A DNA stretch of 64,000 nt from contig CM082584.2 of NCBI GenBank assembly GCA_040954595.2, positions 730,281-794,280 on the forward strand, read 5' to 3'. The notes beneath the pieces are model-generated. The model saw only the letters and a list, made by a program, of their open reading frames with translations. It did no database searches and was not told the DNA's origin. Shown here in pieces: positions 2,831 to 64,000 of the stretch; the first letter of the stretch is position 1, and every line of letters begins with the position of its first letter. The position numbers and the translations under genes were made by a program. Source of the stretch: Balanoglossus misakiensis (lineage: Eukaryota > Animalia > Hemichordata).

Positions 2831-5800
2831 TGACGGGAATTCAATGTTAGAAAACCCGTGTGGAAAGTATCTCTACCCGTTTGAAACTAAGAAAAGAATT
2901 TATTCTTATTTATTTTGTAAAAAAGACAATTTTTCGAAAAAAAGTCGAAAAATTGCAATTTTGTCTTGGGTGATTCAAATTATACCGCCTTTTCTGGAAT
3001 TTGCAGCACTTTTTACAAGAGAACGACACTTCATGCTCCATAATATTTCCGAAAATGAAGAAAAGAGTTTATTTTTTATGATTTTTTAAAAATGTACCAT
3101 TTTGTCAAAATATGGCCAAAATGGCTATTTTTTCTTGAATTCCGTCAATATCTCTGCATTTTTGGAGTGGTCGAAAGTTTTAACATACAATCAACATGTC
3201 ATATATGATCAGGGCACCAAATTCGAAGAACGAAGGTTTTTTTATTTTATTTTTCTAAAAATGACATTTTCAAGAAAAATTTGGTAAAACGCAATTTTGT
3301 CTGCAGTGAGCCAAATTAGACGGTCTTTTGTGGAATTTGTATCGATATATATATACGAAGAGCATTCTATACTCCATCAGATTTCCGAAAATGTAGAAAA
3401 CAGGTATTTTTTGTAATTTTCAAAAATTTACCATTTTGACCAAATTGTGGTTAAAATTGTTATTTTCGTGTTGAATGCCGCCAGTGTCACTGCTTTTAAA
3501 AGTCATAAAAACTTTTAACATGCAAGCAATTGCTTATATATGATCAGGCCACCGAATTAAAAAAATAAAGAATGTTTTGCCTAAAAATGACCTTTTTGGT
3601 GCAAAAACGAATAAAACGCAATTTTGTATTAAATCAGCTCATTCAGAGTGCATTTTTTATAATCAGCACCATTTTTACATATATTGGAAATTTCATACAT
3701 CATCAGATATCCAAATATGAAAAAATGATTTAGATTTTAGATGATTGTCCAAAATTAGCTGATATCTAATAAATGTAGTATTGAACCGTTCTGTCCCCCC
3801 CCCCCCTACATTATATGCGGTACGCCGATGTCAGCTTACCCGGCAGTACTGCAGGCCGTGCCCCCAAATAACGTCGGTGTTTGAAACGCCCTGGTTAAAT
3901 TCGGGCTTTCTCTATAAATTGACAGGCAATAATGCAGTCCTACCCGAACAAATGTCGAGTGTTGACCCGCTGTGACTTTCCCTCTTCGGTTTGCCCGACT
4001 TAGCCAACGTCTTTGTACTAATGTGTCGGGTCTTTTGCAGAGCCAGGCCGAAGGAAATCCGACTTGATCACCGTTGCTAACGAACGCTAGTGTCTGTCAT
4101 GGTGTGCCGGGGTTTTAGTCGAGCCAGGCCGTAGGAGATCTGACTTGATCATCGTGGTCAATGTACGCGTGTTTCCGCTCTAAAGTGCCGGGGCTTCAGC
4201 TAAACCATGCCGTAGGAAATCCGACGTAATCACCGTTGATAACTTACGCCAGTCTGTGTCATATAGAGCCGGTGCACCAGCCGAGTCACGCCGTAGGAAA
4301 TCTTACTTGATCAACGTGGTCAATGTACGCCTGTTTCTGCTCTAGAGTGCCGGGGCTTCAGCTGAGCCAGGCCGTGGGAAACCCGACGTGATTACCGTTG
4401 TTAACTTACGCCAGTTTGTGTCCTATATATAGTGCCGGGGCATCAGCCGTGCCAGGCCGAAGGAAATGTGAGTAGATCAACGTGGTCTCTGTACGCGTGT
4501 TTCTGCTCTAGAGTGCCAGGGCTTTAGCCAAGCCATGCCGTAGGAAATCTGACTTGATCAACGTTTCTAACGAACGCTAATGTCTGTCATAGTGTGCCGG
4601 GGTTTTAGTCGAGCTAAGCCGTAGGAGATCAGACTTGATCAACGTGGTCTCTGTACGCGTGTTTCTGCTCTAGAGTGCCGGGGCTTTATCCAACCCATGC
4701 CGTAGAAAATCTGACTTGATCACCGTTGCTAACGTACGCTAGTGTCTGTCATATTGTGACGGAGATTTAGCCGAGCCAGGCCGTAGAAAAATCGACTTGT
4801 TCAACGTTACCAGTGTGCAACTGTTTCTGCTCTAGAGTGTCAGGGTTTTAGCCGACTTATGCTGTAGGAAATCTGAGTTGATGAACGGGAATTCAATGTT
4901 AGAAAACCCGTGTGGAAAGTATCTCTACCCGTTTGAAACTAAGAAAAGAATTTATTCTTATTTATTTTGTAAAAAAGACAATTTTTCGAAGAAAAGTCGA
5001 AAAATTGCAATTTTGTCTTGGGTGATTCAAATTATACCGCCTTTTCTGGAATTTGCAGCACTTTTTACAAGAGAACGACACTTCATGCTCCATAATATTT
5101 CCGAAAATGAAGAAAAGAGTTAATTTTTTATGATTTTTCAAAAATTTACCATTTTTGTCAAAATATGGCCAAAATGGCTATTTTTCTTGAATTCCGTCAA
5201 TATCTCTGCATTTTTGGAGTGGTCGAGAGTTTTAACATACAATCAACATGTCATATATGATCAGGGCACCAAATTCGAAGAATAAAGGTTTTTTTATTTT
5301 TTTTTCTAAAAATGACATTTTCAAGAAAAATTTGGTAAAACGCAATTTTGTCTGCAGTGAGCCAAATTAGACGGTCTTTTGTGGAATTTGTATCGATATA
5401 TACATACGAAGGGCATTCTATACTCCATCAGATTTCCGAAAATGTAGAAAACAGGTATTTTTTGTAATTTTCAAAAATTTACCATTTTGACCAAATTGTG
5501 GCTAAAATTGTTATTTTCGTGATGAATGCCGCCAGTGTCACTGCTTTTAAAAGTCATAAAAACTTTTAACATACAAGCAATTGTTTATATATGATCAGGT
5601 CACCGAATTAAAAAAATAAAGAATGTTTTGCCTAAAAATTACCTTTTTGGTGCAAAAACGAATAAAACGCAATTTTGTATTAAATCAGCTCATTCAGAGT
5701 GCATTTTTTATAATCAGCACCATTTTTACATATATTGGAAATTTCATACATCATCAGATATCCAAATATGAAAAAATGATTTAGATTTTAGATGATTGTC

Positions 5801-8800
5801 CAAAATTAGCTGATATCTAATAAATGTAGTATTGAACCGTTCTGTCCCCCCCTACATTATATGCGGTACGCCGATGTCAGCTTACCCGGCAGTACTGCAG
5901 GCCGTGCCCCCAAATAACGTCGGTGTGTGAAACGCCCTGGTTAAATTCGGGCTTTCTCTATAAATTAACAGGCAATAATGCAGTCCTACCCGAACAAATG
6001 TCGAGTGTTGACCCGCTGTGACTTTCCCTCTTCGGTTTGCCCGACTTAGCCAACGTCTTTGTACTAGAGGGTCGGGTCTTTTGCCGAGCCAGGCCGAAGG
6101 AAATCCGACTTGATCACCGTTGCTAACGAACGCTAGTGTCTGTCATGGTGTGCCGGGGTTTTAGTCGAACCAGGCCGTAGGAAATCTGACTTGATCAACG
6201 TGGTCAATGTACGCGTGTTTCCGCTCTAAAGTGCCGGGGCTTCAGCTAAACCATGCCGTAGGCAATCCGACGTAATCACCGTTGATAACTTACGCCAGTC
6301 TGTGTCATATAGAGCCGGTGCACTAGCCGAATCACGCCGTAGGAAATCTGACTTGATCAACGTGGTCAATGTACGCCTGTTTCTGCTCTAGAGTGCCGGG
6401 GCTTCAGCTGAGCCAGGCCGTAGGAAACCCGACGTGATTACCGTTGTAAACTTACGCCAGTCTGTGTCCTATATATAGTGCCGGGGCATCAGCCGTGCCA
6501 GGCCGAAGGAAATGTGAGTAGATCAACGTGGTCTCTGTACGCGTGTTTCTGCTCTAGAGTGCCGGGGCTTTATCCAAGCCATGCCGTAGAAAATCTGACT
6601 TGATCACCGTTGCTAACGTACGATAGTGTCTGTCATAGTGTGCCGGGGTTTTAGTCGAGCCAAGCCGTAGGAGATCAGACTTCATCAACGTGGTCTCTGT
6701 ACGCGTGTTTCTGCTCTAGAGTGCCGGGGCTTTATCCAAGCCATGCCGTAGAAAATCTGACTTGATCACCGTTGCTAACGTGCGCTAGTGTCTGTCATAT
6801 TGTGACGGAGATTTAGCCGAGCCAGGCCGTAGAAAAATCGACTTGTTCAACGTTACCAGTGTGCAACTGTTTCTGCTCTAGAGTGTCAGGGTTTTAGCCG
6901 ACTTATGCTGTAGGAAATCTGAGTTGATGAACGGGAATTCAATGTTAGAAAACCCGTGTGGAAAGTATCTCTACCCGTTTGGAACTATGAAAAGAATTTA
7001 TTCTTATTTATTTTGTGAAACAAGACAATTTTTCGAAAAAAAGTCGAAAATGGTAATTTTGTCTTGGGTGATTCAAATTATACCACATTTTCTGGAATTT
7101 GCAGCACTTTTTACAAGAGAACGACACTTCATGCTCCATAATATTTCCGAAAATGAAGAAAAGAGTTTATTTTTTATGATTTTTTAAAAATGTACCATTT
7201 TGTCAAAATATGGCCAAAATGGCAATTTTTTCGTGAATTCCGTCAATATCTCTGCATTTTTGGAGTGGTCGAAAGTTTTAACATACAATCAACATGTCAT
7301 ATATGATCAGGGCACCAAATTCGAAGAACGAAGGTTTTTTTATTTTATTTTTCTAAAAATGACATTTTAAAGGAAAATTTGGTAAAACGCAATTTTGTCT
7401 GCAGTGAGCCAAATTAGACGGTCTTTTGTGGAATTTGTATCGATATATATATACGAAGAGCATTCTATACTCCATCAGATTTCCGAAAATGTAGAAAACA
7501 GGTATTTTTTGTAATTTTCAAAAATTTACCATTTTGACCAAATTGTGGTTAAAATTGTTATTTTCGTGTTGAATGCCGCCAGTGTCACTGCTTTTAAAAG
7601 TCATAAAAACTTTTAACATGCAAGCAATTGCTTATATATGATCAGGCCACCGAATTAAAAAAATAAAGAATGTTTTGCCTAAAAATGACCTTTTTGGTGC
7701 AAAAACGAATAAAACGCAATTTTGTATTAAATCAGCTCATTCAGAGTGCATTTTTTATAATCAGCACCATTTTTACATATATTGGAAATTTCATACATCA
7801 TCAGATATCCAAATATGAAAAAATGATTTAGATTTTAGATGATTGTCCAAAATTAGCTGATATCTAATAAATGTAGTATTGAACCGTTCTGTCCCCCCCT
7901 ACATTATATGCGGTACGCCGATGTTAGCTTACCCGGCAGTACTGCAGGCCGTGCCCCCAAATAACGTCGGTGTGTGAAACGCCCTGGTTAAATTCGGGCT
8001 TTCTCTATAAATTAACAGGCAATAATGCAGTCCTACCCGAACAAATGTCGAGTGTTGACCCGCTGTGACTTTCCCTCTTCGGTTTGCCCGACTTAGCCAA
8101 CGTCTTTGTACTAATGTGTCGGGTCTTTTGCAGAGCCAGGCCGAAGGAAATCCGACTTGATCACCGTTGCTAACGAACGCTAGTGTCTGTCATGGTGTGC
8201 CGGGGTTTTAGTCGAGCCAGGCCGTAGGAGATCTGACTTGATCATCGTGGTCAATGTACGCGTGTTTCCGCTCTAAAGTGCCGGGGCTTCAGCTAAACCA
8301 TGCCGTAGGAAATCCGACGTAATCACCGTTGATAACTTACGCCAGTCTGTGTCATATAGAGCCGGTGCACCAGCCGAATCACGCCGTAGGAAATCTGACT
8401 TGATCAACGTGGTCAATGTACGCCTGTTTCTGCTCTAGAGTGCCGGGGCTTCAGCTGAGCCAGGCCGTAGGAAACCCGACGTGATTACCGTTGTTAACTT
8501 ACGCCAGTCTGTGTCCTATATATAGTGCCGGGGCATCAGCCGTGCCAGGCCGAAGGAAATGTGAGTAGATCAACGTGGTCTCTGTACGCGTGTTTCTGCT
8601 CTAGAGTGCCGGGGCTTTATCCAAGCCATGCCGTAGAAAATCTGACTTGATCACCGTTGCTAACGTACGATAGTGTCTGTCATAGTGTGCCGGGGTTTTA
8701 GTCGAGCCAAGCCGTAGGAGATCAGACTTCATCAACGTGGTCTCTGTACGCGTGTTTCTGCTCTAGAGTGCCGGGGCTTTATCCAAGCCATGCCGTAGAA

Positions 8801-11800
8801 AATCTGACTTGATCACCGTTGCTAACGTGCGCTAGTGTCTGTCATATTGTGACGGAGATTTAGCCGAGCCAGGCCGTAGAAAAATCGACTTGTTCAACGT
8901 TACCAGTGTGCAACTGTTTCTGCTCTAGAGTGTCAGGGTTTTAGCCGACTTATGCTGTAGGAAATCTGAGTTGATGAACGGGAATTCAATGTTAGAAAAC
9001 CCGTGTGGAAAGTATCTCTACCCGTTTGGAACTATGAAAAGAATTTATTCTTATTTATTTTGTGAAACAAGACAATTTTTCGAAAAAAAGTCGAAAATGG
9101 TAATTTTGTCTTGGGTGATTCAAATTATACCACATTTTCTGGAATTTGCAGCACTTTTTACAAGAGAACGACACTTCATGCTCCATAATATTTCCGAAAA
9201 TGAAGAAAAGAGTTTATTTTTTATGATTTTTTAAAAATGTACCATTTTGTCAAAATATGGCCAAAATGGCTATTTTTTCGTGAATTCCGTCAATATCTCT
9301 GCATTTTTGGAGTGGTCGAAAGTTTTAAACATACAATCAACATGTCATATATGATCAGGGCACCAAATTCGAAGAACGAAGGTTTTTTTATTTTATTTTT
9401 CTAAAAATGACATTTTAAAGGAAAATTTGGTAAAACGCAATTTTGTCTGCAGTGAGCCAAATTAGACGGTCTTTTGTGGAATTTGTATCGATATATATAT
9501 ACGAAGAGCATTCTATACTCCATCAGATTTCCGAAAATGTAGAAAACAGGTATTTTTTGTAATTTTCAAAAATTTACCATTTTGACCAAATTGTGGTTAA
9601 AATTGTTATTTTCGTGTTGAATGCCGCCAGTGTCACTGCTTTTGAAAGTCATAAAAACTTTTAACATGCAAGCAATTGCTTATATATGATCAGGCCACCG
9701 AATTAAAAAAATAAAGAATGTTTTGCCTAAAAATGACCTTTTTGGTGCAAAAACGAATAAAACGCAATTTTGTATTAAATCAGCTCATTCAGAGTGCATT
9801 TTTTATAATCAGCACCATTTTTACATATATTGGAAATTTCATACATCATCAGATATCCAAATATGAAAAAATGATTTAGATTTTAGATGATTGTCCAAAA
9901 TTAGCTGATATCTAATAAATGTAGTATTGAACCGTTCTGTCCCCCCCTACATTATATGCGGTACGCCGATGTTAGCTTACCCGGCAGTACTGCAGGCCGT
10001 GCCCCCAAATAACGTCGGTGTGTGAAACGCCCTGGTTAAATTCGGGCTTTCTCTATAAATTAACAGGCAATAATGCAGTCCTACCCGAACAAATGTCGAG
10101 TGTTGACCCGCTGTGACTTTCCCTCTTCGGTTTGCCCGACTTAGCCAACGTCTTTGTACTAATGTGTCGGGTCTTTTGCAGAGCCAGGCCGAAGGAAATC
10201 CGACTTGATCACCGTTGCTAACGAACGCTAGTGTCTGTCATGGTGTGCCGGGGTTTTAGTCGAGCCAGGCCGTAGGAGATCTGACTTGATCATCGTGGTC
10301 AATGTACGCGTGTTTCCGCTCTAAAGTGCCGGGGCTTCAGCTAAACCATGCCGTAGGAAATCCGACGTAATCACCGTTGATAACTTACGCCAGTCTGTGT
10401 CATATAGAGCCGGTGCACCAGCCGAATCACGCCGTAGGAAATCTGACTTGATCAACGTGGTCAATGTACGCCTGTTTCTGCTCTAGAGTGCCGGGGCTTC
10501 AGCTGAGCCAGGCCGTAGGAAACCCGACGTGATTACCGTTGTTAACTTACGCCAGTCTGTGTCCTATATATAGTGCCGGGGCATCAGCCGTGCCAGGCCG
10601 AAGGAAATGTGAGTAGATCAACGTGGTCTCTGTACGCGTGTTTCTGCTCTAGAGTGCCGGGGCTTTATCCAAGCCATGCCGTAGAAAATCTGACTTGATC
10701 ACCGTTGCTAACGTACGATAGTGTCTGTCATAGTGTGCCGGGGTTTTAGTCGAGCCAAGCCGTAGGAGATCAGACTTCATCAACGTGGTCTCTGTACGCG
10801 TGTTTCTGCTCTAGAGTGCCGGGGCTTTATCCAAGCCATGCCGTAGAAAATCTGACTTGATCACCGTTGCTAACGTACGCTAGTGTCTGTCATATTGTGA
10901 CGGAGATTTAGCCGAGCCAGGCCGTAGAAAAATCGACTTGTTCAACGTTACCAGTGTGCAACTGTTTCTGCTCTAGAGTGTCAGGGTTTTAGCCGACTTA
11001 TGCTGTAGGAAATCTGAGTTGATGAACGGGAATTCAATGTTAGAAAACCCGTGTGGAAAGTATCTCCTCCCGTTTGAAACTAAGAAAAGAATTTATTCTT
11101 ATTTATTTTGTTAAAAAGACAATTTTTCGAAAAAAAGTCGAAAATGGTAATTTTGTCTTGGGTGATTCAAATTATACCACCTTTTCTGGAATTTGCAGCA
11201 CTTTTTACAAGAGAACGACACTTCATGCTCCATAATATTTCCGAAAATGAAGAAAATAGTTAATTTTTTATGATTTTTTAAAAATTTACCATTTTTGTCA
11301 AAATATGGCCAAAATGGCTATTTTTTCTTGAATTCCGTCAATATCTCTGCATTTTTGGAGTGGTCGAAAGTTTTAACATACAATCAACATGTCATATATG
11401 ATCAGGGCACCACATTTGAAGAACAAAGGTTTTTTTATTTTTTTTTCTAAAAATGACATTTTCAAGGAAAATTTGGTAAAACGCAATTTTGTCTGCAGTG
11501 AGCCAAATTAGACGGTCTTTTGTGGAATTTGTATCGATATATACATACGAAGAGCATTCTATACTCCATCAGATTTCCAAAAATGTAGAAAACAGGTATT
11601 TTTTGTAATTTTCAAAAATTTACCATTTTGACCAAATTGTGGCTAAAATTGTTATTTTCGTGTTGAATGCCGCCAGTGTCACTGCTTTTAAAAGTCATAA
11701 AAACTTTTAACATACAAGCAATTGTTTATATATGATCAGGTCACCGAATTAAAAAAATAAAGAATGTTTTGCCTAAAAATGACCTTTTTGGTGCAAAAAC

Positions 11801-14800
11801 GAATAAAACGCAATTTTGTATTAAATCAGCTCATTCAGAGTGCATTTTTTATAATCAGCACCATTTTTACATTTATTGGAAATTTCATACATCATCAGAT
11901 ATCCAAATATGAAAAAATGATTTAGATTTTAGATGATTGTCCAAAATTAGCTGATATCTAATAAATGTAGTATTGAACCGTTCTGTCCCCCCCCCTACAT
12001 TATATGCGGTACGCCGATGTCAGCTTACCCGGCAGTACTGCAGGCCGTGCCCCCAAATAACGTCGGTGTGTGAAACGCCCTGGTTAAATTCGGGCTTTCT
12101 CTATAAATTAACAGGCAATAATGCAGTCCTACCCGAACAAATGTCGAGTGTTGACCCGCTGTGACTTTCCCTCTTCGGTTTGCCCGACTTAGCCAACGTC
12201 TTTGTACAAGAGGGTCGGGTCTTTTGCCGAGCCAGGCCGAAGGAAATCCGACTTGATTACCGTTGCTAACGAACGCTAGTGTCTGTCATGGTGTGCCGGG
12301 GTTTTAGTCGAACCAGGCCGTAGGAAATCTGACTTGATCAACGTGGTCAATGTACGCGTGTTTCCGCTCTAAAGTGCCTGGGCTTCAGCTAAACCATGCC
12401 GTAGGAAATCCGACGTAATCACCGTTGATAACTTACGCCAGTCTGTGTCATATAGAGCCGGTGCACCAGCCGAACCAGGCCGTAGGAAATCTGACTTGAT
12501 CAACGTGGTCAATGTACGCCTGTTTCTGCTCTAGAGTGCCGGGGCTTCAGCTGATCCAGGCCGTAGGAAACCCGACGTGATTACCGTTGTTAACTTACGC
12601 CAGTCTGTGTCCTATATATATTGCGGGGCATCAGCCGTGCCAGGCCTAAGGAAATGTGAGTAGATCAATGTGGTCTCTGTACGCGTGTTTCTGCTCTAGA
12701 ATGCCAGGGCTTTAGCCAAGCCATGCCGTAGGAAATCTGACTTGATCAACGTTGCTAACGAACGCTAGTGTCTGTCATAGTGTGCCGGGGTTTTAGTCGA
12801 GCCAAGCCGTAGGAGATCTGACTTGATCATCGTGGTCAATGTACGCGTGTTTCCGCTCTAAAGTGCCGGGGCTTGAGCTAAAACAGGCCGTAGGAAATCC
12901 GACGTAATCACCGTTGATAACTTACGCCAGTCTGTGTCATATAGAGCCGGTGCACCAGCGGAGTCACGCCGTAGGACATCTGACTTGATCAACGTGGTCA
13001 ATGTACGCCTGTTTCTGCTCTAGAGTGCCGGGGCTTCAGCTGAGCCAGGCCGTAGGAAACCCGACGTGATTACCGTTGTTAACTTACGCCAGTCTGTGTC
13101 CTATATATAGTGCCGGGGCATCAGCTGTGCCAGGCCGAAGGAAATGGGAGTAGATCAACGTGGTCTCTGTACGCGTGTTTCTGCTCTAGAGTGCCGGGGC
13201 TTTAGCCAAGCCATGCCGTAGGAAATCTGACTTGATCAACGTTGCTAACGAACGCTAGTGTCTGTCATAGTGTGCCGGGGTTTTAGTCGAGCCAAGCCGT
13301 AGGAGATCAGACTTGATCAACGTGGTCTCTGTACGCGTGTTTCTGCTCTAGAGTGCCGGGGCTTTATCCCAGCCATGCCGTAGAAAATCTGACTTGATCA
13401 CCGTTGCTAACGTGCGCTAGTGTCTGTCATATTGTGACGGAGATTTAGCCGAGCCAGGCCGTAGAAAAATCGACTTGTTCAACGTTACCATTGTGCAACT
13501 GTTTCTGCTCTAGAGTGTCAGGGTTTTAGCCGACTTATGCTGTAGGAAATCTGAGTTGATGAATGGGAATTCAATGTTAAAAAACCTGTGTGGAAAGTGT
13601 CTCTACCCTTTTGAAACTAAGAAAATAATTTATTCTTATTTATTTTGTAAAAATCACAATTTTTCGAAAAAAAGTCGAAAATGGTAATTTTGTCATGGGT
13701 AATTCAAATTATACCGCCTTTTCTGGAATTTGCAGCACTTTTTACAAGAGAACGACACTTCATGCTCCATAATATTTCCGAAAATGAAGAAAAGAGTTAA
13801 TTTTTTATGATTTTTTAAAAATTTACCATTTTTGTCAAAATATGGCCAAAATTGCTATTTTTTCATGATTTCCGTCAATATCTCTGCATTTTTGGAGTGG
13901 TCGAAAGTTTTAACATACAATCAACATGTCATATATGATCAGGGCACCAAATTCGAAGAACAAAGGTTTTTTTTATTTTTTTTTCTAAAAATGACATTTT
14001 CAAGGAAAATTTGGTAAAACGCAATTTTGTCTGCAGTGAGCCAAATTGGCCGTTTTTTTTGTGGAATTTGTATCGATATATGTATACGAAGAGCATTCTA
14101 TACTCCATCAGATTTCCGAAAATGTAGAAAACAGGTATTTTTTGTAATTTTCAAAAATTTACCATTTTGACCGAATTGTGGCTAAAATTGTTCTTTTCGT
14201 GTTGAATGCCGCCAGTGTCACTGCTTTTAAAAGTCATTAAAACTTTTAACATACAAGCAATTGTTTATATATGATCAGGTCACCGAATTTAAAGAATAAA
14301 GAATGTTTTCCCTAAAAATGACCTTTTTGGTGCAAAAACGAATAAAACGCAATTTTGTATTAAATCAGCTCATTCAGAGTGCATTTTTTATAATCAGCAC
14401 CATTTTTACATATAATGGAAATTTCATACATCATCAGATATCCAAATATGAAAAAATGATTAAGATTTTAGATGATTGTCCAAAAGTAGCTGATATCTAA
14501 TAAATATAGTATTGAACCGTTCTGTTCCCCCCCCCCCCTACATTAAATGCGGTACGCCGATGTCAGCTTACCCGTCAGTACTGCAGGCCGTGCCCACAAC
14601 TAACGTCGGTGATTGAAACGCCCTGGTTAAATTCGGGCTTTCTCTATAAATTGACAGGCAATATTGTAGTCCTACCGGAACAAATGTCGAGTGTTGACCC
14701 GCTGTGACTTTCCCTCTTCGGTTTGCCCGACTTAGCCAACGTCTTTGTACTAGAGTGTCGGGTGTTTTGCAGAGCCAGGCCGCAGGAAATCCGACTTGAT

Positions 14801-57745: not shown

Positions 57746-57782
57746 CACTGCGGCCCAGAAGTGTGTTCATTTGTCCGCTATT
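57746..57782 (+). repeat. Left terminal inverted repeat (bipartite)
   Basis: CACTGCGGCCCAG-N11-TTTGTCCGCTATT; each 13-bp block matches the right end at 11/13 in ungapped register. Confidence 0.9.
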
Positions 57783-57846
57783 CCGCGAAGCGGAAATATG
57801 TTAATTGAGGTCATATGCTGGGGTCACGTTCCTAGCATCGTATATA

Positions 57847-57859
57847 CAAAATGGCGGCG
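57847..57859 (+). promoter_or_regulatory. YY1-type motif overlapping the start codon of the accessory gene
   Basis: CAAAATGGCGGCG matches the YY1 consensus; a related CAAAGATGGCG lies in the right TIR spacer (~63285-63295). Motif match only. Confidence 0.35.
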
Positions 57860-58471
57860 TCCATGATCGATGTTTCTAAAACAGTGAAACGTAAGCTGCG
57901 TGAGGCCAAATTTCAGTTATTGAGGACAAATATCGACCGTTCCATCAACCTACATGATTGTTTTGATGATCTCGATGCTGCTGTTGATGTAACAGTTCGC
58001 AAACGTAGTGCAACGATGGTGGAGCTTGCGAAGATGCAGCAGATTCCGGTGTATCCTGTATTCGAACGGGAGATGTGTCACTGGCGCTCAACAATTATGC
58101 AGAGAATGAAGCCATCACCCTCAGTGCGCAACCCATGGAAGTGCAGTTTTGGTAGGAATGTTCCTATGGAAGTTTTCGATGTATTTCGACAGTGCGCTAC
58201 CCGTAATTCAATGGGAATTTATGATCGGGAAACTCCATGTATTGCTACCTTTCGATTTACCTGGATCAACAAAGTGAATTACGTGCTGGGTAGAGGTGTC
58301 AACTATGAAAACCAACAACTTCTGGTGAAGACAGTAAAGGGTAAGCGGGTGGAAGTTATCTGCACCGAAGATAAACCTATGATTGTCAGATACAGGAAAT
58401 CAGCCGAGACAGTGACAATACATTTCCATTTTGGATGCTGGAACAAACATGGTGTTGCTCAGCATTTGTGA
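57851..58471 (+). CDS. 206-aa protein of unknown function; accessory gene of the transposon
   Basis: Uninterrupted, non-repetitive ORF with start context CAAAATGG 105 bp inside the left TIR; AT-rich 3' region with ATTAAA at ~58579; no domain recognised. Confidence 0.75.
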   Translation: MAASMIDVSKTVKRKLREAKFQLLRTNIDRSINLHDCFDDLDAAVDVTVRKRSATMVELAKMQQIPVYPVFEREMCHWRSTIMQRMKPSPSVRNPWKCSFGRNVPMEVFDVFRQCATRNSMGIYDRETPCIATFRFTWINKVNYVLGRGVNYENQQLLVKTVKGKRVEVICTEDKPMIVRYRKSAETVTIHFHFGCWNKHGVAQHL

Positions 58472-58891
58472 AATCATATTTAGACTGTTGTTGAAATTTT
58501 TTTTCATGTTCTTGGAACTGACTATATTACTTTTTGTCAGTCCATTTGAATTCATGCATCGTTGCATGTCCAAGCAAAATTAAAAAAGAAAAACATGTTT
58601 TATAGGAACTGAATAGCTGTGGGTGAATCATTTATCATTCAGTTTTTATTCACTTATTTTGAAACATGGTTATCTACAGAGCTGATATAAGCAGCTAGTT
58701 TCAAAGGATGATTAAAAAGCTATATACATATTTTGAACAATACAATACAAGCAGCACAAAATCTGTGACATTCATAATGAAAGATTATTTACAACAAACT
58801 CTCTTACAGTTATATACAAATCTAAAACTATCTGGTACATTTCATGTACAGTAATAATTGTTTTGAATCATGAAATTCAAACTTTCACATT

Positions 58892-59980
58892 TTATTTCAT
58901 TATTTTTTTTAGTTTTTTTGAGATCTTACCACTAATTGCAGACTGTTTTATTTCTGACATAAATTCACTGCTGCATATTTCACAGGAATTTGACAACTCT
59001 TCCTTTACATTCCCACAATAACAGTATGATGGGTCATCAAAGCATTTGTCTGGGATGTACTTTATTACTTTGGAGGCATTTGACCTCCCATCCCCCCTGT
59101 AGTTATCTGAAGCGGGGTCTCGCATGCGTAACCAGTACAACAATACATACTCATGTCTGAAAATTAGTGGCCATCTATTTTGAGGGGTGGAATTATTGCT
59201 GTATTCCAGAAGGCGCTGATGTTTTGCCTCCCTGCCCTCCATTGTATTAAGCCCAAGCCCCATTTGGAACTGCTGGTGGATTTGAGATGCATGACACGGA
59301 ACAACATATCCTATATGCCAAATAGTATTGTTTACGGTCAGAAATAACGCATGCAAATTGAAGTACCATTTGCACTTCTGCCTTAGTACTACAATATCTC
59401 TCTCATGTAGGGTAAACCTGGAACAGAGAGATGTTATATCTCTGAGTAGGACACCAATGTAACCATACAGGGACAATTTCGCTCTCACCTGTGCACTGAT
59501 ACCGGGTTCCCTAAAACACTCTATCAGTGACATAAAAGACCATGCCAACTTCCTTGATTCTTCCCCTGTAAAGCGGTGAACTCTCACTGATTGGGCATGG
59601 GTACTAACCTTATTCTCAGCAAAATATTTGACAATTTGATTGTATAGTTTCCCTGCTCTCACTGTATATTTTAGTGTATGCAGGAATTTGTACAGGCATG
59701 AATTTGGTGGTAGCTTTTCTAATTTCACACCATGGTCAATGACTTTTTGGTCAGTCTTAGCCACAGCATCAGTAAGAAGCCTTTGAAAGAAATACTGCCA
59801 GGCATTGTTTTTTAGATGTAGGGGTTCTATCTTGGCACACTGTATATACTTACCCAGGGGTGGAATATATTCCTGTCGGGATTTTCTGGAGGCAATGAAA
59901 CGTGTGACCTTAGAGCGATCTGTCGATGTTTCAGGCTTACCTGTTTTCTTTGTCAAATTTGCTTTGAATTTTGCCACTGC
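58892..59980 (-). CDS. RAG1/Transib/Chapaev-like transposase, C-terminal part (catalytic Glu), out of frame with the central part
   Basis: IEPLHLK (cf. RAG1 IDALHCD, Chapaev PLHIK), RFTGEESRKL (cf. RMNGNFARKL), LGLNTMEGREAKH (Glu at 59228-59230, cf. IGAWASEGNESGN with E962), and a C-terminal CxC-x10-CxxC. Confidence 0.87.
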   Translation of the reverse strand, partial: AVAKFKANLTKKTGKPETSTDRSKVTRFIASRKSRQEYIPPLGKYIQCAKIEPLHLKNNAWQYFFQRLLTDAVAKTDQKVIDHGVKLEKLPPNSCLYKFLHTLKYTVRAGKLYNQIVKYFAENKVSTHAQSVRVHRFTGEESRKLAWSFMSLIECFREPGISAQVRAKLSLYGYIGVLLRDITSLCSRFTLHERDIVVLRQKCKWYFNLHALFLTVNNTIWHIGYVVPCHASQIHQQFQMGLGLNTMEGREAKHQRLLEYSNNSTPQNRWPLIFRHEYVLLYWLRMRDPASDNYRGDGRSNASKVIKYIPDKCFDDPSYCYCGNVKEELSNSCEICSSEFMSEIKQSAISGKISKKLKKIMK

Positions 59981-61098
59981 TTATAGCTCCACTCTGACCA
60001 AAATTTCCCTGGCCCTATATCTGCCCCTATTTCATCTATGCTACCTTTTGTTACATTAGCAAAGGAACTGAAATACTCAGCAGCATTAGATAACTCACCA
60101 GAAACTGAGGCTAATCCCTTTTGATCAAATGGCAGCAAAGATACATTAAACTTTACACTCAGGCCATGTAAAGTGTATTGTTTGGCCTCTATGATCTCAA
60201 ACTCTTTGGCTAGGTTTTTAGCATAATCTATCAGGACTGGGTCATCTTCCTTCAGATTAGCCCCTAGCAACAAGAAATTATCATCAGGGCTTGCTAATCT
60301 GTGGCCCACATTGATGAAACTGACAAGCCAGGAAGTTGCCTGACCATATTTTCCAAAAGGAGCCCCATCAGCACCAACAGCAAGTTGGAAAGTGCCCTTC
60401 GGTTTGCCAAACCAATTTAGGATGTTAGGGTGGTGCTCACTCAAGCAAAGATACATGTCAGCAACTTTAAAGAGCATCTGCTCTGTATTTCGCTTCATAC
60501 CCACTACTTTGTTTGCATCTGTTACAATTGGTTCAAGACTTCCTATATCTAAACCACGTGTATATTCAGTGACCTTGTTGTAGGAAAGTAACCTTGGTAT
60601 GTTACACCTAAAGTGAAATTGCAACACTTTTCTAGGTTGTTTTAATTTAGACAGATTCAACTCACTATTACGTAAGGCATTGTATTTGCGTTTTGACAAA
60701 ACCCCATTCTGATACAACACTTGCACACTCCTAGTCAAATTACCTTCACTTTTCTCAAATTCAGATATTGATTTCTTTATCAAAGTTGGTATGACCAATT
60801 CATTTATTTTCATTGATGATTGAAGGTACTTTTCCATTTGACGTGGAGTGGCACTGTTGATCAAAGTATACCATAGCCCATCAAGAGCTGATTTTGGTGG
60901 ATTTGCTCTGACATGTCTCCCTGCAGATATATCTGTTCCTGATGATGACTGGTGTATGACTGTAGCTGCATGAAGAGTCTGACTTCTGCGTTCATGTTGC
61001 TGACTTCTGGACAGTGTGAGGCATTCACTGTTATTAGCACAAACCTGGCTGCTTTTATGAACCCACTTCTGTTTCTTTGGGGATGTCAAATCTGCAAT
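59953..61098 (-). CDS. RAG1/Transib/Chapaev-like transposase, central part (first two catalytic Asp)
   Basis: FQLAVGADGAPFG (Asp at 60367-60369, cf. RAG1 D600 motif SCDG) and DQKGLASVSGELSNAAEYF (Asp at 60124-60126, cf. RAG1 D708 [19 protein letters not shown]). No ATG start, so probably an internal exon; in-frame AAG acceptor at 61099. Confidence 0.85.
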   Translation of the reverse strand: MADLTSPKKQKWVHKSSQVCANNSECLTLSRSQQHERRSQTLHAATVIHQSSSGTDISAGRHVRANPPKSALDGLWYTLINSATPRQMEKYLQSSMKINELVIPTLIKKSISEFEKSEGNLTRSVQVLYQNGVLSKRKYNALRNSELNLSKLKQPRKVLQFHFRCNIPRLLSYNKVTEYTRGLDIGSLEPIVTDANKVVGMKRNTEQMLFKVADMYLCLSEHHPNILNWFGKPKGTFQLAVGADGAPFGKYGQATSWLVSFINVGHRLASPDDNFLLLGANLKEDDPVLIDYAKNLAKEFEIIEAKQYTLHGLSVKFNVSLLPFDQKGLASVSGELSNAAEYFSSFANVTKGSIDEIGADIGPGKFWSEWSYKQWQNSKQI

Positions 61099-61130
61099 CT
61101 TTAATAAATGAATACAAAACAGATTTTCAT

Positions 61131-61700
61131 TGTCATGCCAAGGTCAAACAGGTAGGCAATGTCACATGAGCAAGCAATACACATGAATGGAAACCCCAGT
61201 GTCATGCCAAGGTCAAACATGGAGGCCATGTCACATGAGCAAGCAATACACATGAATGGAAACCCCAGTGTCATGCCAAGGTCAAACAGAGAGAAAATAT
61301 CACATGATCAAGCAATACACATGAATGGAAATCCCAGTGTCATGCCAAGGTCAAACATGGAGGCCATGTCACATGAGCAAGCAATACACATAAATGGAAA
61401 CCCCAGTGTCATGCCAAGGTCAAACATGGAGGCCATGTCACATGAGCAAGCAATACACATAAATGGAAACCCACGTGTCATGCCAAGGTCAAACATGGAG
61501 GCCATGTCACATGAGCAAGCAATACACATGAATGGAAACCCCAGTGTCATGCCAAGGTCAAACAGAGAGAGAATATCACATGATCAAGCAATACACATGA
61601 ATGGAAATCCCAGTGTCATGCCAAGGTCAAACAGAGAGGCAATGTCACATGAGCAAGCAATATGCATAAATGGAAACCCCAGTGTTATGCCAAGGTCAAG
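61131..61700. repeat. 69-bp minisatellite (~8.3 copies) in the putative transposase intron
   Basis: TGTCATGCCAAGGTCAAAC at 61131, 61200, 61269, 61338, 61407, 61476, 61545, 61614 and (variant) 61683. Confidence 0.97.
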
Positions 61701-61926
61701 CAGGGAGGTGTTTCAAAGCTGTAGTTCAGAATTTAGAAAACAAACACACATAAAATCATATCATATACATTAAAGCAAGGTCAAAATGTTTTATGATTCA
61801 CTTAGTTGTAATATAATTTAAAGTATACAAACTTTAATTTGGTGGATATTTTCCTATTCTGCTTGTAATCATAAATCTTGTGAAAATCTGAAATGAAGCT
61901 AAATTCCTTCTATATAATTACCTTAC

Positions 61927-62277
61927 CTCCTGATTAAGCTTAACCCTATTTCCAGCTAATCTCCTTTGCTTCTTTGCTAGCCTGTTTAGTTGCTTACTGG
62001 CCCTGTCGACTAGTCTCCTCTTTGCATCTAATTTCTGCATTTTCTCTCTGTACTGAGCTACCTCTTCCTCACGTCTACGCTTTCTCTCTCTTGCCCATGC
62101 CCCTAGCTTGTATCTATTCTCTGACTTGCTCTTAACCTTTTCTGGCAGTGTCTTTGCAGCTAACTCAGCATCTAACAGCTGTTGAAGTTGTATGTCTCTA
62201 GCTATTTCTCTGGCTTTTTTTTGTTGGACTGCATACTGCCCGATGTCAAAATGGTTTGTCCTTTTCCTGTTAGGCAT
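61927..62277 (-). CDS. Probable N-terminal coding exon of the transposase (basic, coiled-coil-like)
   Basis: ATG-initiated K/R/E/Q-rich ORF on the same strand, ending at a good phase-0 donor GAG|GTAAGG (61927/61926) that is frame-compatible with the acceptor at 61099; splicing is inferred. Confidence 0.6.
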
Positions 62278-63275
62278 GATTTGAGTTATATCCAGAGCAC
62301 AGCTGGGATGGAGTTACACAATGGAGCATTTCCTAAATGTGAATAAATGTGAAAAGTTGTAGAAAACATAAAAGGTCATCTAGAAAGCTGTTTCAGTCAA
62401 ACAGTTCCAAACAGACAGTATTTAATGACGCTACAGAAGACCTGATGATATAAAAGACTGTGTATTTTGCGAAGTACTGGCATACTGTTGCAAGTACCGG
62501 AACATTGATTGAGTATAATCAGCTGCAATCTACGTATATTGCGCGTGGACGCAGTTCCTTCTGTGTGCGTCTGCTTTGCCTAAACGCTGTACGCGCGCGG
62601 CGTTCAAAGCGCTGTCGCAAGAACTCTCTCGTTCAAAATATTTACTCTTACATTTTAGAACGAAAATGATATATCAACATGTTATATAGATATCAAGGAA
62701 CAATCTGCTCGTTTTGGTTTTTTAGGTTCACGCTTCAAACTCGAGAAATCTGCCGATATGTTTTGCCTGACGGTCGACATTTGCGTAGCTGTGCCATTGT
62801 AATCAATGGTAGAGCGACGCGCAGGCAGAACGCGCCAAACTCGATGAATTTCTGCTTGGATCAATTTCTACATATGACCTTTTTGGGGATAGAAAATCAA
62901 AACACTGAGTTACAAACGTCTTAGGAACACTCTCATGGTTTTGAAATTTTGAATAATGCATTAAGATTTGATTTTTTCGGCCGTTTTTCTGTCTTGGTTG
63001 TGGTTGCTATGTTCTTTGTTTACATAGTTACCAATGATAGCGATTTGAAACCAGGTCAGATTTTCAGTGAAATTAAATGAATAGAAATCAGAGAATGATG
63101 ACAATACTAGCTTAAGACCTTAAAGAATATGATAACGTGATGTAAACATTATAAATGCGTTTAATGTCTTGTAATACTTACCGGCATTTTCATGTTGTTG
63201 TAACTGGCGAACGTTCCATTGCCGGTAACAAATCGCCTCATACATTATTCATGAGGCCATGAAAGTAGGGACGGA

Positions 63276-63312
63276 AATATCAGACAAAGATGGCGCACAC
63301 TGGGCTGTAGTG
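63276..63312 (-). repeat. Right terminal inverted repeat (bipartite)
   Basis: Reverse complement reads CACTACAGCCCAG-N11-TTTGTCTGATATT. Confidence 0.9.
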
Positions 63313-64000
63313 CAGAGCTAGTGGTCAGTGTCGTGCCAATCAATTTTGAGTGTTTGGTGGGGTCAACATATGCGTCAACATTGATTAGTCAGGCCATGCA
63401 GAGCTAGTGGCCAGTGTCGTGCCCATCAATTTTGAGTGTTTGGTGGGGTCAACATTTGCGTCAACATTGATTAGCCAGGCCATGCAGAGCTAGTGGCCAG
63501 TGTCGTGCCCATCAATTTTGAGTGTTTGGCGGGGTCAACCTTTGCGTCAACCTTGATTAGCCAGGCCATGCAGAGCTAGTGGCCAGTGTCGTGCCCATCA
63601 ATTTTGAGTGTTTGGTGGGGTCAACCTTTGCGTCAACATTGATTAGCCAGGCCAGGCAGAGCTAGTGGCCAGTGTCGTGCCCATTAATTTTGAGTGTTTG
63701 GTGGGGTCAACCTTTGCGTCAACATTGATTAGCCAGCCCAGAGCTAGTGGCCAGTGTCGTGCCCATTAATTTTGAGTGTTTGGTGGGGTCAACCTTTGCG
63801 TCAACATTGATTAGCCAGCCCAGAGCTAGTGGCCAGTGTCGTGCCCATTAATTTTGAGTGTTTGGTGGGGTCAACCTTTGCGTCAACATTGATTAGCCAG
63901 CCCAGAGCTAGTGGCCAGTGTCGTGCCCATCAATTTTGAGTGTTTGGTGGGGTCAACCCTTGCGTCAACATTGATTAGCCAGGCCAGAGCTAGTGGCCAG
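63313..64000. repeat. Satellite B, 86/82-bp monomer, runs off the window end
   Basis: CAGAGCTAGTGG at 63313, 63399, 63485, 63571, 63657, 63739, 63821, 63903 and 63985. Confidence 0.98.

Follow-up and report, generated by a model that had tools for sequence, protein, structure and literature searches.

A C2H2 zinc site is the stated common signature of the CACTA-Chapaev-Transib-RAG1 clade of transposases in a 2025 survey (PMC12730594), where all CMCT lineages are described as sharing C(2)C and H(3-4)H. In RAG1 the ligands are C727, C730, H937 and H942, and mutations at its zinc sites destabilise the fold and cause SCID (PMC4914335). RAGL/ProtoRAG transposons place two convergent genes inside terminal inverted repeats (TIRs), the second encoding the six-bladed kelch protein RAG2L. 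Transib elements have a single gene and keep the C2H2 site in the three rows compared from PMC7204232.

Here we describe a 5.6-kb cut-and-paste DNA transposon, present as a frameshifted copy at positions 57746-63312 of a 64,000-nucleotide stretch of DNA from the hemichordate Balanoglossus misakiensis (the window). Its family shares with RAGL/ProtoRAG a RAG1-type predicted fold (Z 20-22), a DDE triad, the equivalent of RAG1 H795, CAC termini, two convergent genes inside TIRs, a long insert at the RAG2-binding helices and a Cys-rich tail after the C-terminal domain. It differs in lacking CxxC, in a probable Trp at the H937 position, in a structural identity of about 10%, in a second gene that encodes a non-kelch protein of about 210 aa, in a target site duplication (TSD) of 3 rather than 5 bp, and in a tail of the form CxC-CxxC rather than CxxCxxxGHxxxxC. 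With Transib it shares the fold (HzTransib Z 19.9), an xPT[VI] helix start, an RFTG-type motif and CAC termini, and some Transib relatives are reported to have 3-bp TSDs (10.64898/2026.08.26.747230). Unlike Transib it has two genes and no C2H2 site, and the C-to-LH spacer of HzTransib is much shorter.

The original prediction for this locus saw an apparent coordinated loss of all four zinc ligands in the transposase core; the element's ends and its conserved second gene are new beyond it. We consider it likely that the family comprises two-gene transposons with a predicted RAG1/Transib-fold DDE enzyme, in which the cysteines were lost family-wide, the zinc site was replaced by packed side chains and the partner protein acts as a helper.

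Layout of the window element

The features of the window copy are as follows.

57746..57758, plus strand: terminal inverted repeat, partner side; starts with CAC, with CAG just before
57851..58471, plus strand: partner gene, 206 aa, single open frame, convergent with the transposase
58892..59980, minus strand: transposase C-terminal frame (P0002), 60% identical to Ptychodera flava P0003
58973..59023, minus strand: C-terminal CxC...CxxC, a putative zinc finger located where RAG1L has its tail
59228..59230, minus strand: catalytic Glu in MEGREAKH, RAG1 E962 equivalent
59291..59320, minus strand: ZnH2-equivalent WHIGYVVPCH, with Trp at 59320-59318, Val at 59305-59303 and the conserved His at 59293-59291
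59816..59827, minus strand: EPLH motif, whose His is the RAG1 H795 equivalent
59977..59980, minus strand: frameshift; nothing here corresponds to residues 312-317 of the P. flava relative
59977..61098, minus strand: transposase N-terminal/core frame (P0001), 65% identical to P0003 over residues 3-311
60058..60126, minus strand: second catalytic Asp (60126-60124) and former CxxC loop, with Ser at 60069-60067 and Ala at 60060-60058
60367..60369, minus strand: first catalytic Asp, in GADGAPFGK
61131..61708, no strand: 69-bp tandem array, 8.4 copies, inside the predicted intron
61927..62277, minus strand: predicted first coding exon, with a splice site proposed from sequence; basic, coiled, with an F-x-I-G-x-Y-A motif
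63300..63312, minus strand: terminal inverted repeat, transposase side; CAG just after

The element has CAC...GTG termini with CAG flanking both sides. We located these termini, which are absent among the 25 longest repeat pairs, through a step in contig depth and a comparison of flanks; they score top of 128 CAC/GTG pairs, and the two ends are identical at 11 of 13 positions. The left junction is precise, since the flanking repeat runs on uninterrupted at exactly base 57746 in 18 of its 19 copies, and contig depth drops after 57745 from more than 400,000 to about 400. The right flank matches the empty-site sequence of the left flank for CAGAG only and then continues as a different repeat. A rearrangement beside the window element is thus likely, and its CAG duplication is suggestive only.

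The surroundings are highly repetitive. Positions 1-57745 form a tandem array of about 30 copies of a ~2.05-kb unit, mostly 96-98% alike, each containing an internal 81-bp array; the orientation reverses at about 32.5 kb and, over a short stretch, at about 46.1-46.5 kb, and depth in sequencing runs is very high. An 86-bp tandem array at 63312-64000 abuts the right terminus, and one contig joins the 2.05-kb and 86-bp repeats without an element between them. The 86-bp array and the empty site of the 2.05-kb unit have a TGCAGAG motif in common, which may reflect target preference or an adjacent deletion.

The window transposase is split between two long minus-strand frames (61143-59953 and 59980-58892). 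The start of P0001 coincides with a predicted splice acceptor, and P0002 holds the PLH His, the ZnH2-equivalent helix, the catalytic Glu and the C-terminal C4 finger. Of 298 relatives, 12 carry the F-x-I-G-x-Y-A motif of the predicted first exon close to their N-terminus, Nematostella and Lineus proteins among them. A tblastn search with the closest relative covered residues 3-311 and 318-679 in different frames. Contigs from sequencing runs that are probably the source sample bridge the frameshift in the same form, so that it is not an error of the window assembly alone, and we rejected assembly error as its explanation. With a frameshift near 59980 the window copy cannot make the whole enzyme, and the argument that follows therefore rests on intact relatives.

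A transposase family with a predicted RAG1-type fold

A sequence search with P0002 retrieved 32 long relatives and 782 clusters at 50% identity (E<=0.001; 150 among the matches listed), and a profile search retrieved 432 relatives (120 among the matches listed). Named members come from P. flava (60-65% identical), Nematostella, Actinia, Exaiptasia, Actinostola and Lineus, and their database names are 'uncharacterized' or 'hypothetical'. Hundreds of intact relatives exist in cnidarians, a hemichordate and a nemertean, and the family is widespread in marine animals. No relative of the transposase was found on viral contigs. The one match in a prokaryote genome, an 86-kb contig of an Anaerolineae metagenome-assembled genome (L081), is probably host DNA binned with the bacterium.

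Column counts below come from 298 family proteins (of 354 gathered), many of them fragments, so that denominators differ; residue numbers such as Trp536, His540, Val541, His545, 569 and 591 are those of P0003. No Pfam transposase family, including PF02992, PF18759 and Transposase_21, was matched by any of the 32 members, and Pfam returned nothing meaningful for the window transposase halves or the predicted first exon. Profiles of 32 and 112 sequences recovered neither RAG1 nor Transib among PDB sequences at E<=10. The residue registers given here thus rest on motif anchors and predicted fold.

The fold was predicted from P0003, the intact relative that is 60% identical to the window copy, in an AlphaFold model with pLDDT 88.6 and pTM 0.86. 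Its best structural match is mouse RAG1 (VIA Z 22.4, rmsd 3.9, 463 aligned residues; Foldseek E 2.8e-12), ahead of BbRAG1L (Z 20.0), HzTransib, the P element (Z 12.4) and Hermes (Z 6.8). In the ESM Atlas the next neighbours are RAG1, CACTA-type and Plavaka clusters, with TM 0.59-0.62 to Transposase_21 and Plavaka clusters. As in CMCT transposases, the model predicts an RNase H fold that carries the DDE triad and contains a RAG1-type insertion domain. The catalytic residues are near-invariant (first Asp 180/181, second Asp 193/193, Glu 274/282), and the MEGREAKH motif around the Glu agrees with the SEGNE/SEEASE rows in the PMC7204232 alignment. Two further conserved His follow the Glu, at positions 569 (269/283) and 591 (261/271).

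Family-wide loss of the zinc-site cysteines

Mouse RAG1 has Gly at D708+9, Tyr at +17, C727 at +19 and C730 at +22 (Alignment S1a, PMC7204232), and the RAG1 motifs used in the original prediction agree with this row. The residues and coordinates that it reported in the window (Asp, Ser, Ala and WHIGYVVP, all on the minus strand) are likewise correct. Its gapless alignment to the D708 segment extends across the family, in which +9 is Gly in 198/198 and +17 is Tyr or Phe in 198/201 relatives.

At the C727 position (D+19) the 200 relatives scored include 183 with Ser, 10 with Thr, 6 with Cys and 1 with His; at the C730 position (D+22) Ala occurs in 167 of 203, Gly in 28 and Cys in none. The C(2)C motif after the second Asp that characterises CMCT transposases was found in 0/198 relatives. 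Both core zinc cysteines are lost across the whole family.

The idea that the ligands went while the catalytic residues stayed is borne out for the two Cys: the two Asp, the Glu and the PLH His (225/230) are conserved family-wide. The substitutions are common to hundreds of intact relatives of a mobile family, which supports the proposal of an evolved state and not random decay. That the domain is zinc-free applies to the core at most. All four Cys of the C-terminal CxC...CxxC are present in 227/243 relatives, and the transposase is thus probably not zinc-free overall. The RAG1L tail motif CxxCxxxGHxxxxC (CTT*) was found in 0/298 family proteins; in RAG1L the tail is required for activity and contacts the TIR (PMC9435367; PMC7204232).

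The histidine half of the site

The ZnH2-equivalent helix is about one turn longer in the family than in RAG1, which leaves two possible registers for the His ligands. Counted from the N-terminal side, xPT[VI]W corresponds to xxTVH/TPTLH of Transib and the Pro seven residues on to RAG1 P944; Trp536 (282/285) then stands at H937 and Val541 (His in 1/283) at H942. Counted from the C-terminal side, His545 (267/283) stands at H942 and position 540 (His in 113/285; Tyr at 59308 in the window copy) at H937. In the five rows counted in the alignment of PMC7204232, which cover RAG1, BbRAG1L and Transib, the second zinc His precedes the catalytic Glu by 20-23 residues; His545 precedes it by 21 in 204/206 relatives. 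The H(3-4)H/HxxxxH motif of this shifted register occurs in 113/282 relatives (40%), but the window copy does not have it.

Inverse covariance, computed over 185 sequences (about 130 effective; invariant columns cannot be scored), bears on this choice. The pair 280-533 ranks second among long-range pairs (z 10.3), followed by 279-542 (z 5.9) and 281-537 (z 5.1), whereas pairs between the former CxxC loop and 544-548 reach z 3.4 or less. The turns bearing Trp536 and Val541/542 are thus the most likely packing surface for the former CxxC loop.

Covariation and the xPT[VI]W/xxTVH anchor favour Trp and Val at H937 and H942, as originally proposed, whereas the C-side count points to His540 and His545. 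We judge the proposed register quite probable and the shifted one unlikely. Loss of the two Cys ligands is accordingly firm and loss of the two His probable, with a conserved His one turn downstream. Among the nearby residues (WH, PCH) suggested as possible shifted ligands, the VPCH His is kept in 267/283; covariation favours the unshifted register. A canonical C2H2 site cannot form under either register.

A convergent partner gene

The partner gene was followed in metagenome loci, the best 80 of 232. A tblastn search with the window partner alone matched 28 of the 80; in every one of these the match lies downstream of the transposase and on the other strand. A profile that combined the window ORF with 15 of these loci detected a partner, always convergent, in 34/80. 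Among the 33 loci whose sequence continues for 1500 nt or more downstream, 30 carry the partner and 3 lack it. The loci are redundant, with the 31 usable ones falling into 15 groups. Where both were located, the partner start codon lies 70-106 nt from the terminus.

Partner proteins measure about 210 aa across the family, are basic, and have a mean identity of 24%, compared with 41% for the transposase. pN is below pS in all 10 pairs among those listed. Partner and transposase distances correlate (Spearman 0.38 over 15 representatives; 2/5000 permutations as high), a modest correlation that shared ancestry alone can give. Inverted copies of partner sequence (about 100-190 bp, 85-96% alike) lie upstream of the transposase, inside the element, in L002, L006-L008, L040-L045, L056, L060 and L066-L068; they might give rise to antisense RNA or be left over from end-to-end conversion.

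No kelch match was found by Pfam in 10 partner proteins, and the partner is not a kelch propeller; Pfam gave nothing meaningful for the window partner ORF, and its relatives carry the precomputed family PF26709. An AlphaFold2 model of the partner (pLDDT 83.5) has N-terminal helices and an alpha/beta domain, with 7 strands and 5 helices. Foldseek found no match for it at E<=0.001 in PDB or BFVD, and searches of the partner sequence against solved structures gave chance matches only. VIA matched generic helical hairpins (best Z 8.3, over residues 1-66) and scored the alpha/beta part at Z<=5 (AcrID1, RnlA), and the best ESM Atlas score was 0.81.

The transposase has a conserved stretch that may be relevant to the partner. 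The spacing from the C730 to the H795 equivalent has a median of 88 residues, compared with 65 in RAG1 and 31 in HzTransib, and the stretch contains two helices in the P0003 model (309-323 and 333-346) with many columns more than 90% conserved. The matching RAG1 helices belong to the RAG2-binding part of ZnB (PMC9435367), which makes this stretch, by analogy, a natural candidate for a partner docking site.

Ends, target duplications and mobility

Ends across loci share the type CACGC[CT]GGG, and the same ends occur with different flanks. A 3-bp target duplication is present in 7 of 13 end pairs (L003, L041, L064, L068, L070, L081 and the window), and no duplication longer than 3 bp was found among the 13. 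An automatic count gave 5/13; manual revision dropped L007 and L060, in which inner CAC sites had been picked, and added L003 (10/13 identity, below the cut-off) and L081 (the outermost of four tied pairs). The 6 pairs without a 3-bp duplication include contigs with one left flank and different right flanks (L040/L041/L045; L066/L068), as would be expected if short-read assembly had joined different copies.

Intact two-gene copies with defined ends include L003, L070 and L081. Near-identical 797-aa genes on four different Nematostella scaffolds point to recent movement. At L081:4328-12869 a complete element with a partner and an ATA duplication also contains a nested inner inverted-repeat pair at about 5064-12554. 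Other mobile-element ORFs adjoin the family at L053:5314-6948, L003:9018-9835 and L064:7345-8999, all on the minus strand; we take these to be a 545-aa DDE transposase-like frame, Harbinger-like pieces and exonuclease-like pieces.

Relation to described lineages

The family shares CAC..GTG ends, a 3-bp TSD and related predicted folds with CMC/CMCT transposons (EnSpm/CACTA, Chapaev3, Mirage, Plavaka, ESTA, Lanisha). Two further CMCT features are present, namely [M/L]H at the RAG1 H795 position (225/230) and 5'-CA..TG-3' termini with a TSD within 2-5 bp. In contrast, C(2)C, which all lineages of that clade are stated to keep, is absent. Although it would work much as a RAGL transposon does, the family is neither one of these, given the missing kelch gene, the missing CTT* and the 3-bp TSD, nor a Transib, given its two genes and missing C2H2. 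With the P element it shares a DDE domain with a helical insertion and an HLKN-like motif. Its structural score against the P element is far below those against RAG1 and Transib, the family gave no THAP match, and the ends differ, as does the length of the P element's target duplication.

A full-text literature search listed no description of the family, although Repbase, Repbase Reports or bioRxiv supplements may hold one. Family motifs were absent from the partial text of two supplements, which excludes figures and long runs. Since the 2025 survey has C2 and H2 kept in every lineage of the clade, the window family looks like an undescribed lineage, apparently one of RAG1-fold transposons that carry two genes.

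Proposed mechanism and alternatives

By analogy with RAG and Transib, the transposase would bind the CAC ends, cut by a RAG/Transib-like nick-and-hairpin reaction, for which the H795 equivalent is kept, and insert with a 3-bp stagger. The near-invariant Trp536, the YFSxFA loop (Tyr279/Phe283) and the Ser281 hydroxyl would fill and hold the former zinc space. The C-terminal C4 finger may bind zinc and terminal DNA, as the RAG1L tail does, and the partner may dock on the two conserved helices that stand where the RAG2-binding helices of RAG1 stand.

The core might instead retain a metal. If the Cys were lost but the His half survived one turn later (540/545), His545 could form a remodelled site with, for example, Cys518 (197/280), His370 or a conserved acidic residue. 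The near-constant distance of His545 from the catalytic Glu, within the range of RAG1, BbRAG1L and Transib, and the conservation of His545 itself speak for such a site, as does the His found at 540 in part of the family. However, position 540 is not His in 60% of relatives, the window copy included, Cys281, His540 and His545 occur together in just 1 of 192 full rows, covariation places the former CxxC loop on 533-542 and not on 545, and no complete four-ligand set is conserved. We therefore regard a remodelled metal site as improbable. More improbable by far is a RAG1-like host gene, dead or domesticated, in which zinc was lost because DNA is no longer cut: the window copy is frameshifted and RefSeq annotates relatives as genes, yet the near-invariant triad, the termini, the duplications and the many insertion sites largely refute it.

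If the zinc site is indeed gone, the partner could still be something other than a RAG2-like subunit, namely a passenger or a regulator that binds DNA, counters silencing or directs targeting. Its basic character, its much lower conservation than that of the transposase and the lack of a kelch fold fit this role, and the inverted partner pieces could suit regulation at the RNA level. Against this, partner place and orientation are kept across transposases merely 40% identical, with the start codon 70-106 nt from the terminus where both were located, and the transposase retains a conserved surface where RAG2 binds RAG1; we give a regulator or passenger serious weight, though somewhat less than even. 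Prior cataloguing of the family, for example in Repbase as EnSpm, Chapaev3 or an unclassified 3-bp-TSD group, would leave only the zinc remark as new. The Nematostella genome is well surveyed and the partner already has a Pfam family. PMC12730594 regards the combination of CAC..GTG ends and 3-bp TSDs as consistent with EnSpm. Nevertheless, that source also has all CMCT lineages sharing C(2)C and H(3-4)H, no transposase family in Pfam matched the 32 members, whose database names remain 'uncharacterized', and neither the literature search nor the partial supplement text contained the family. Prior cataloguing is accordingly unlikely.

Implications

Our preferred reading remains a RAG1-fold transposase with packed side chains in place of zinc and a helper partner. 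A large mobile family without the zinc signature indicates that the fold can be held together in another way, and motif- or profile-based surveys would miss such elements because the signature is missing. A non-RAG2 partner at the genomic position of RAG2 makes a long-standing question testable, namely whether this fold gained a second subunit once by accident or tends to do so repeatedly. A more tentative proposal, which we hold to be possible but doubtful, is that the family is a superfamily-level lineage that arrived at a RAG architecture in parallel, with a ZnB core that holds no metal, a new C4 tail and an obligate partner of non-kelch type bound to the two helices that RAG2 uses in RAG1. 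If true, this parallel architecture would allow the reasons for which RAG1-type transposases acquire a second subunit to be studied in an independent natural experiment.
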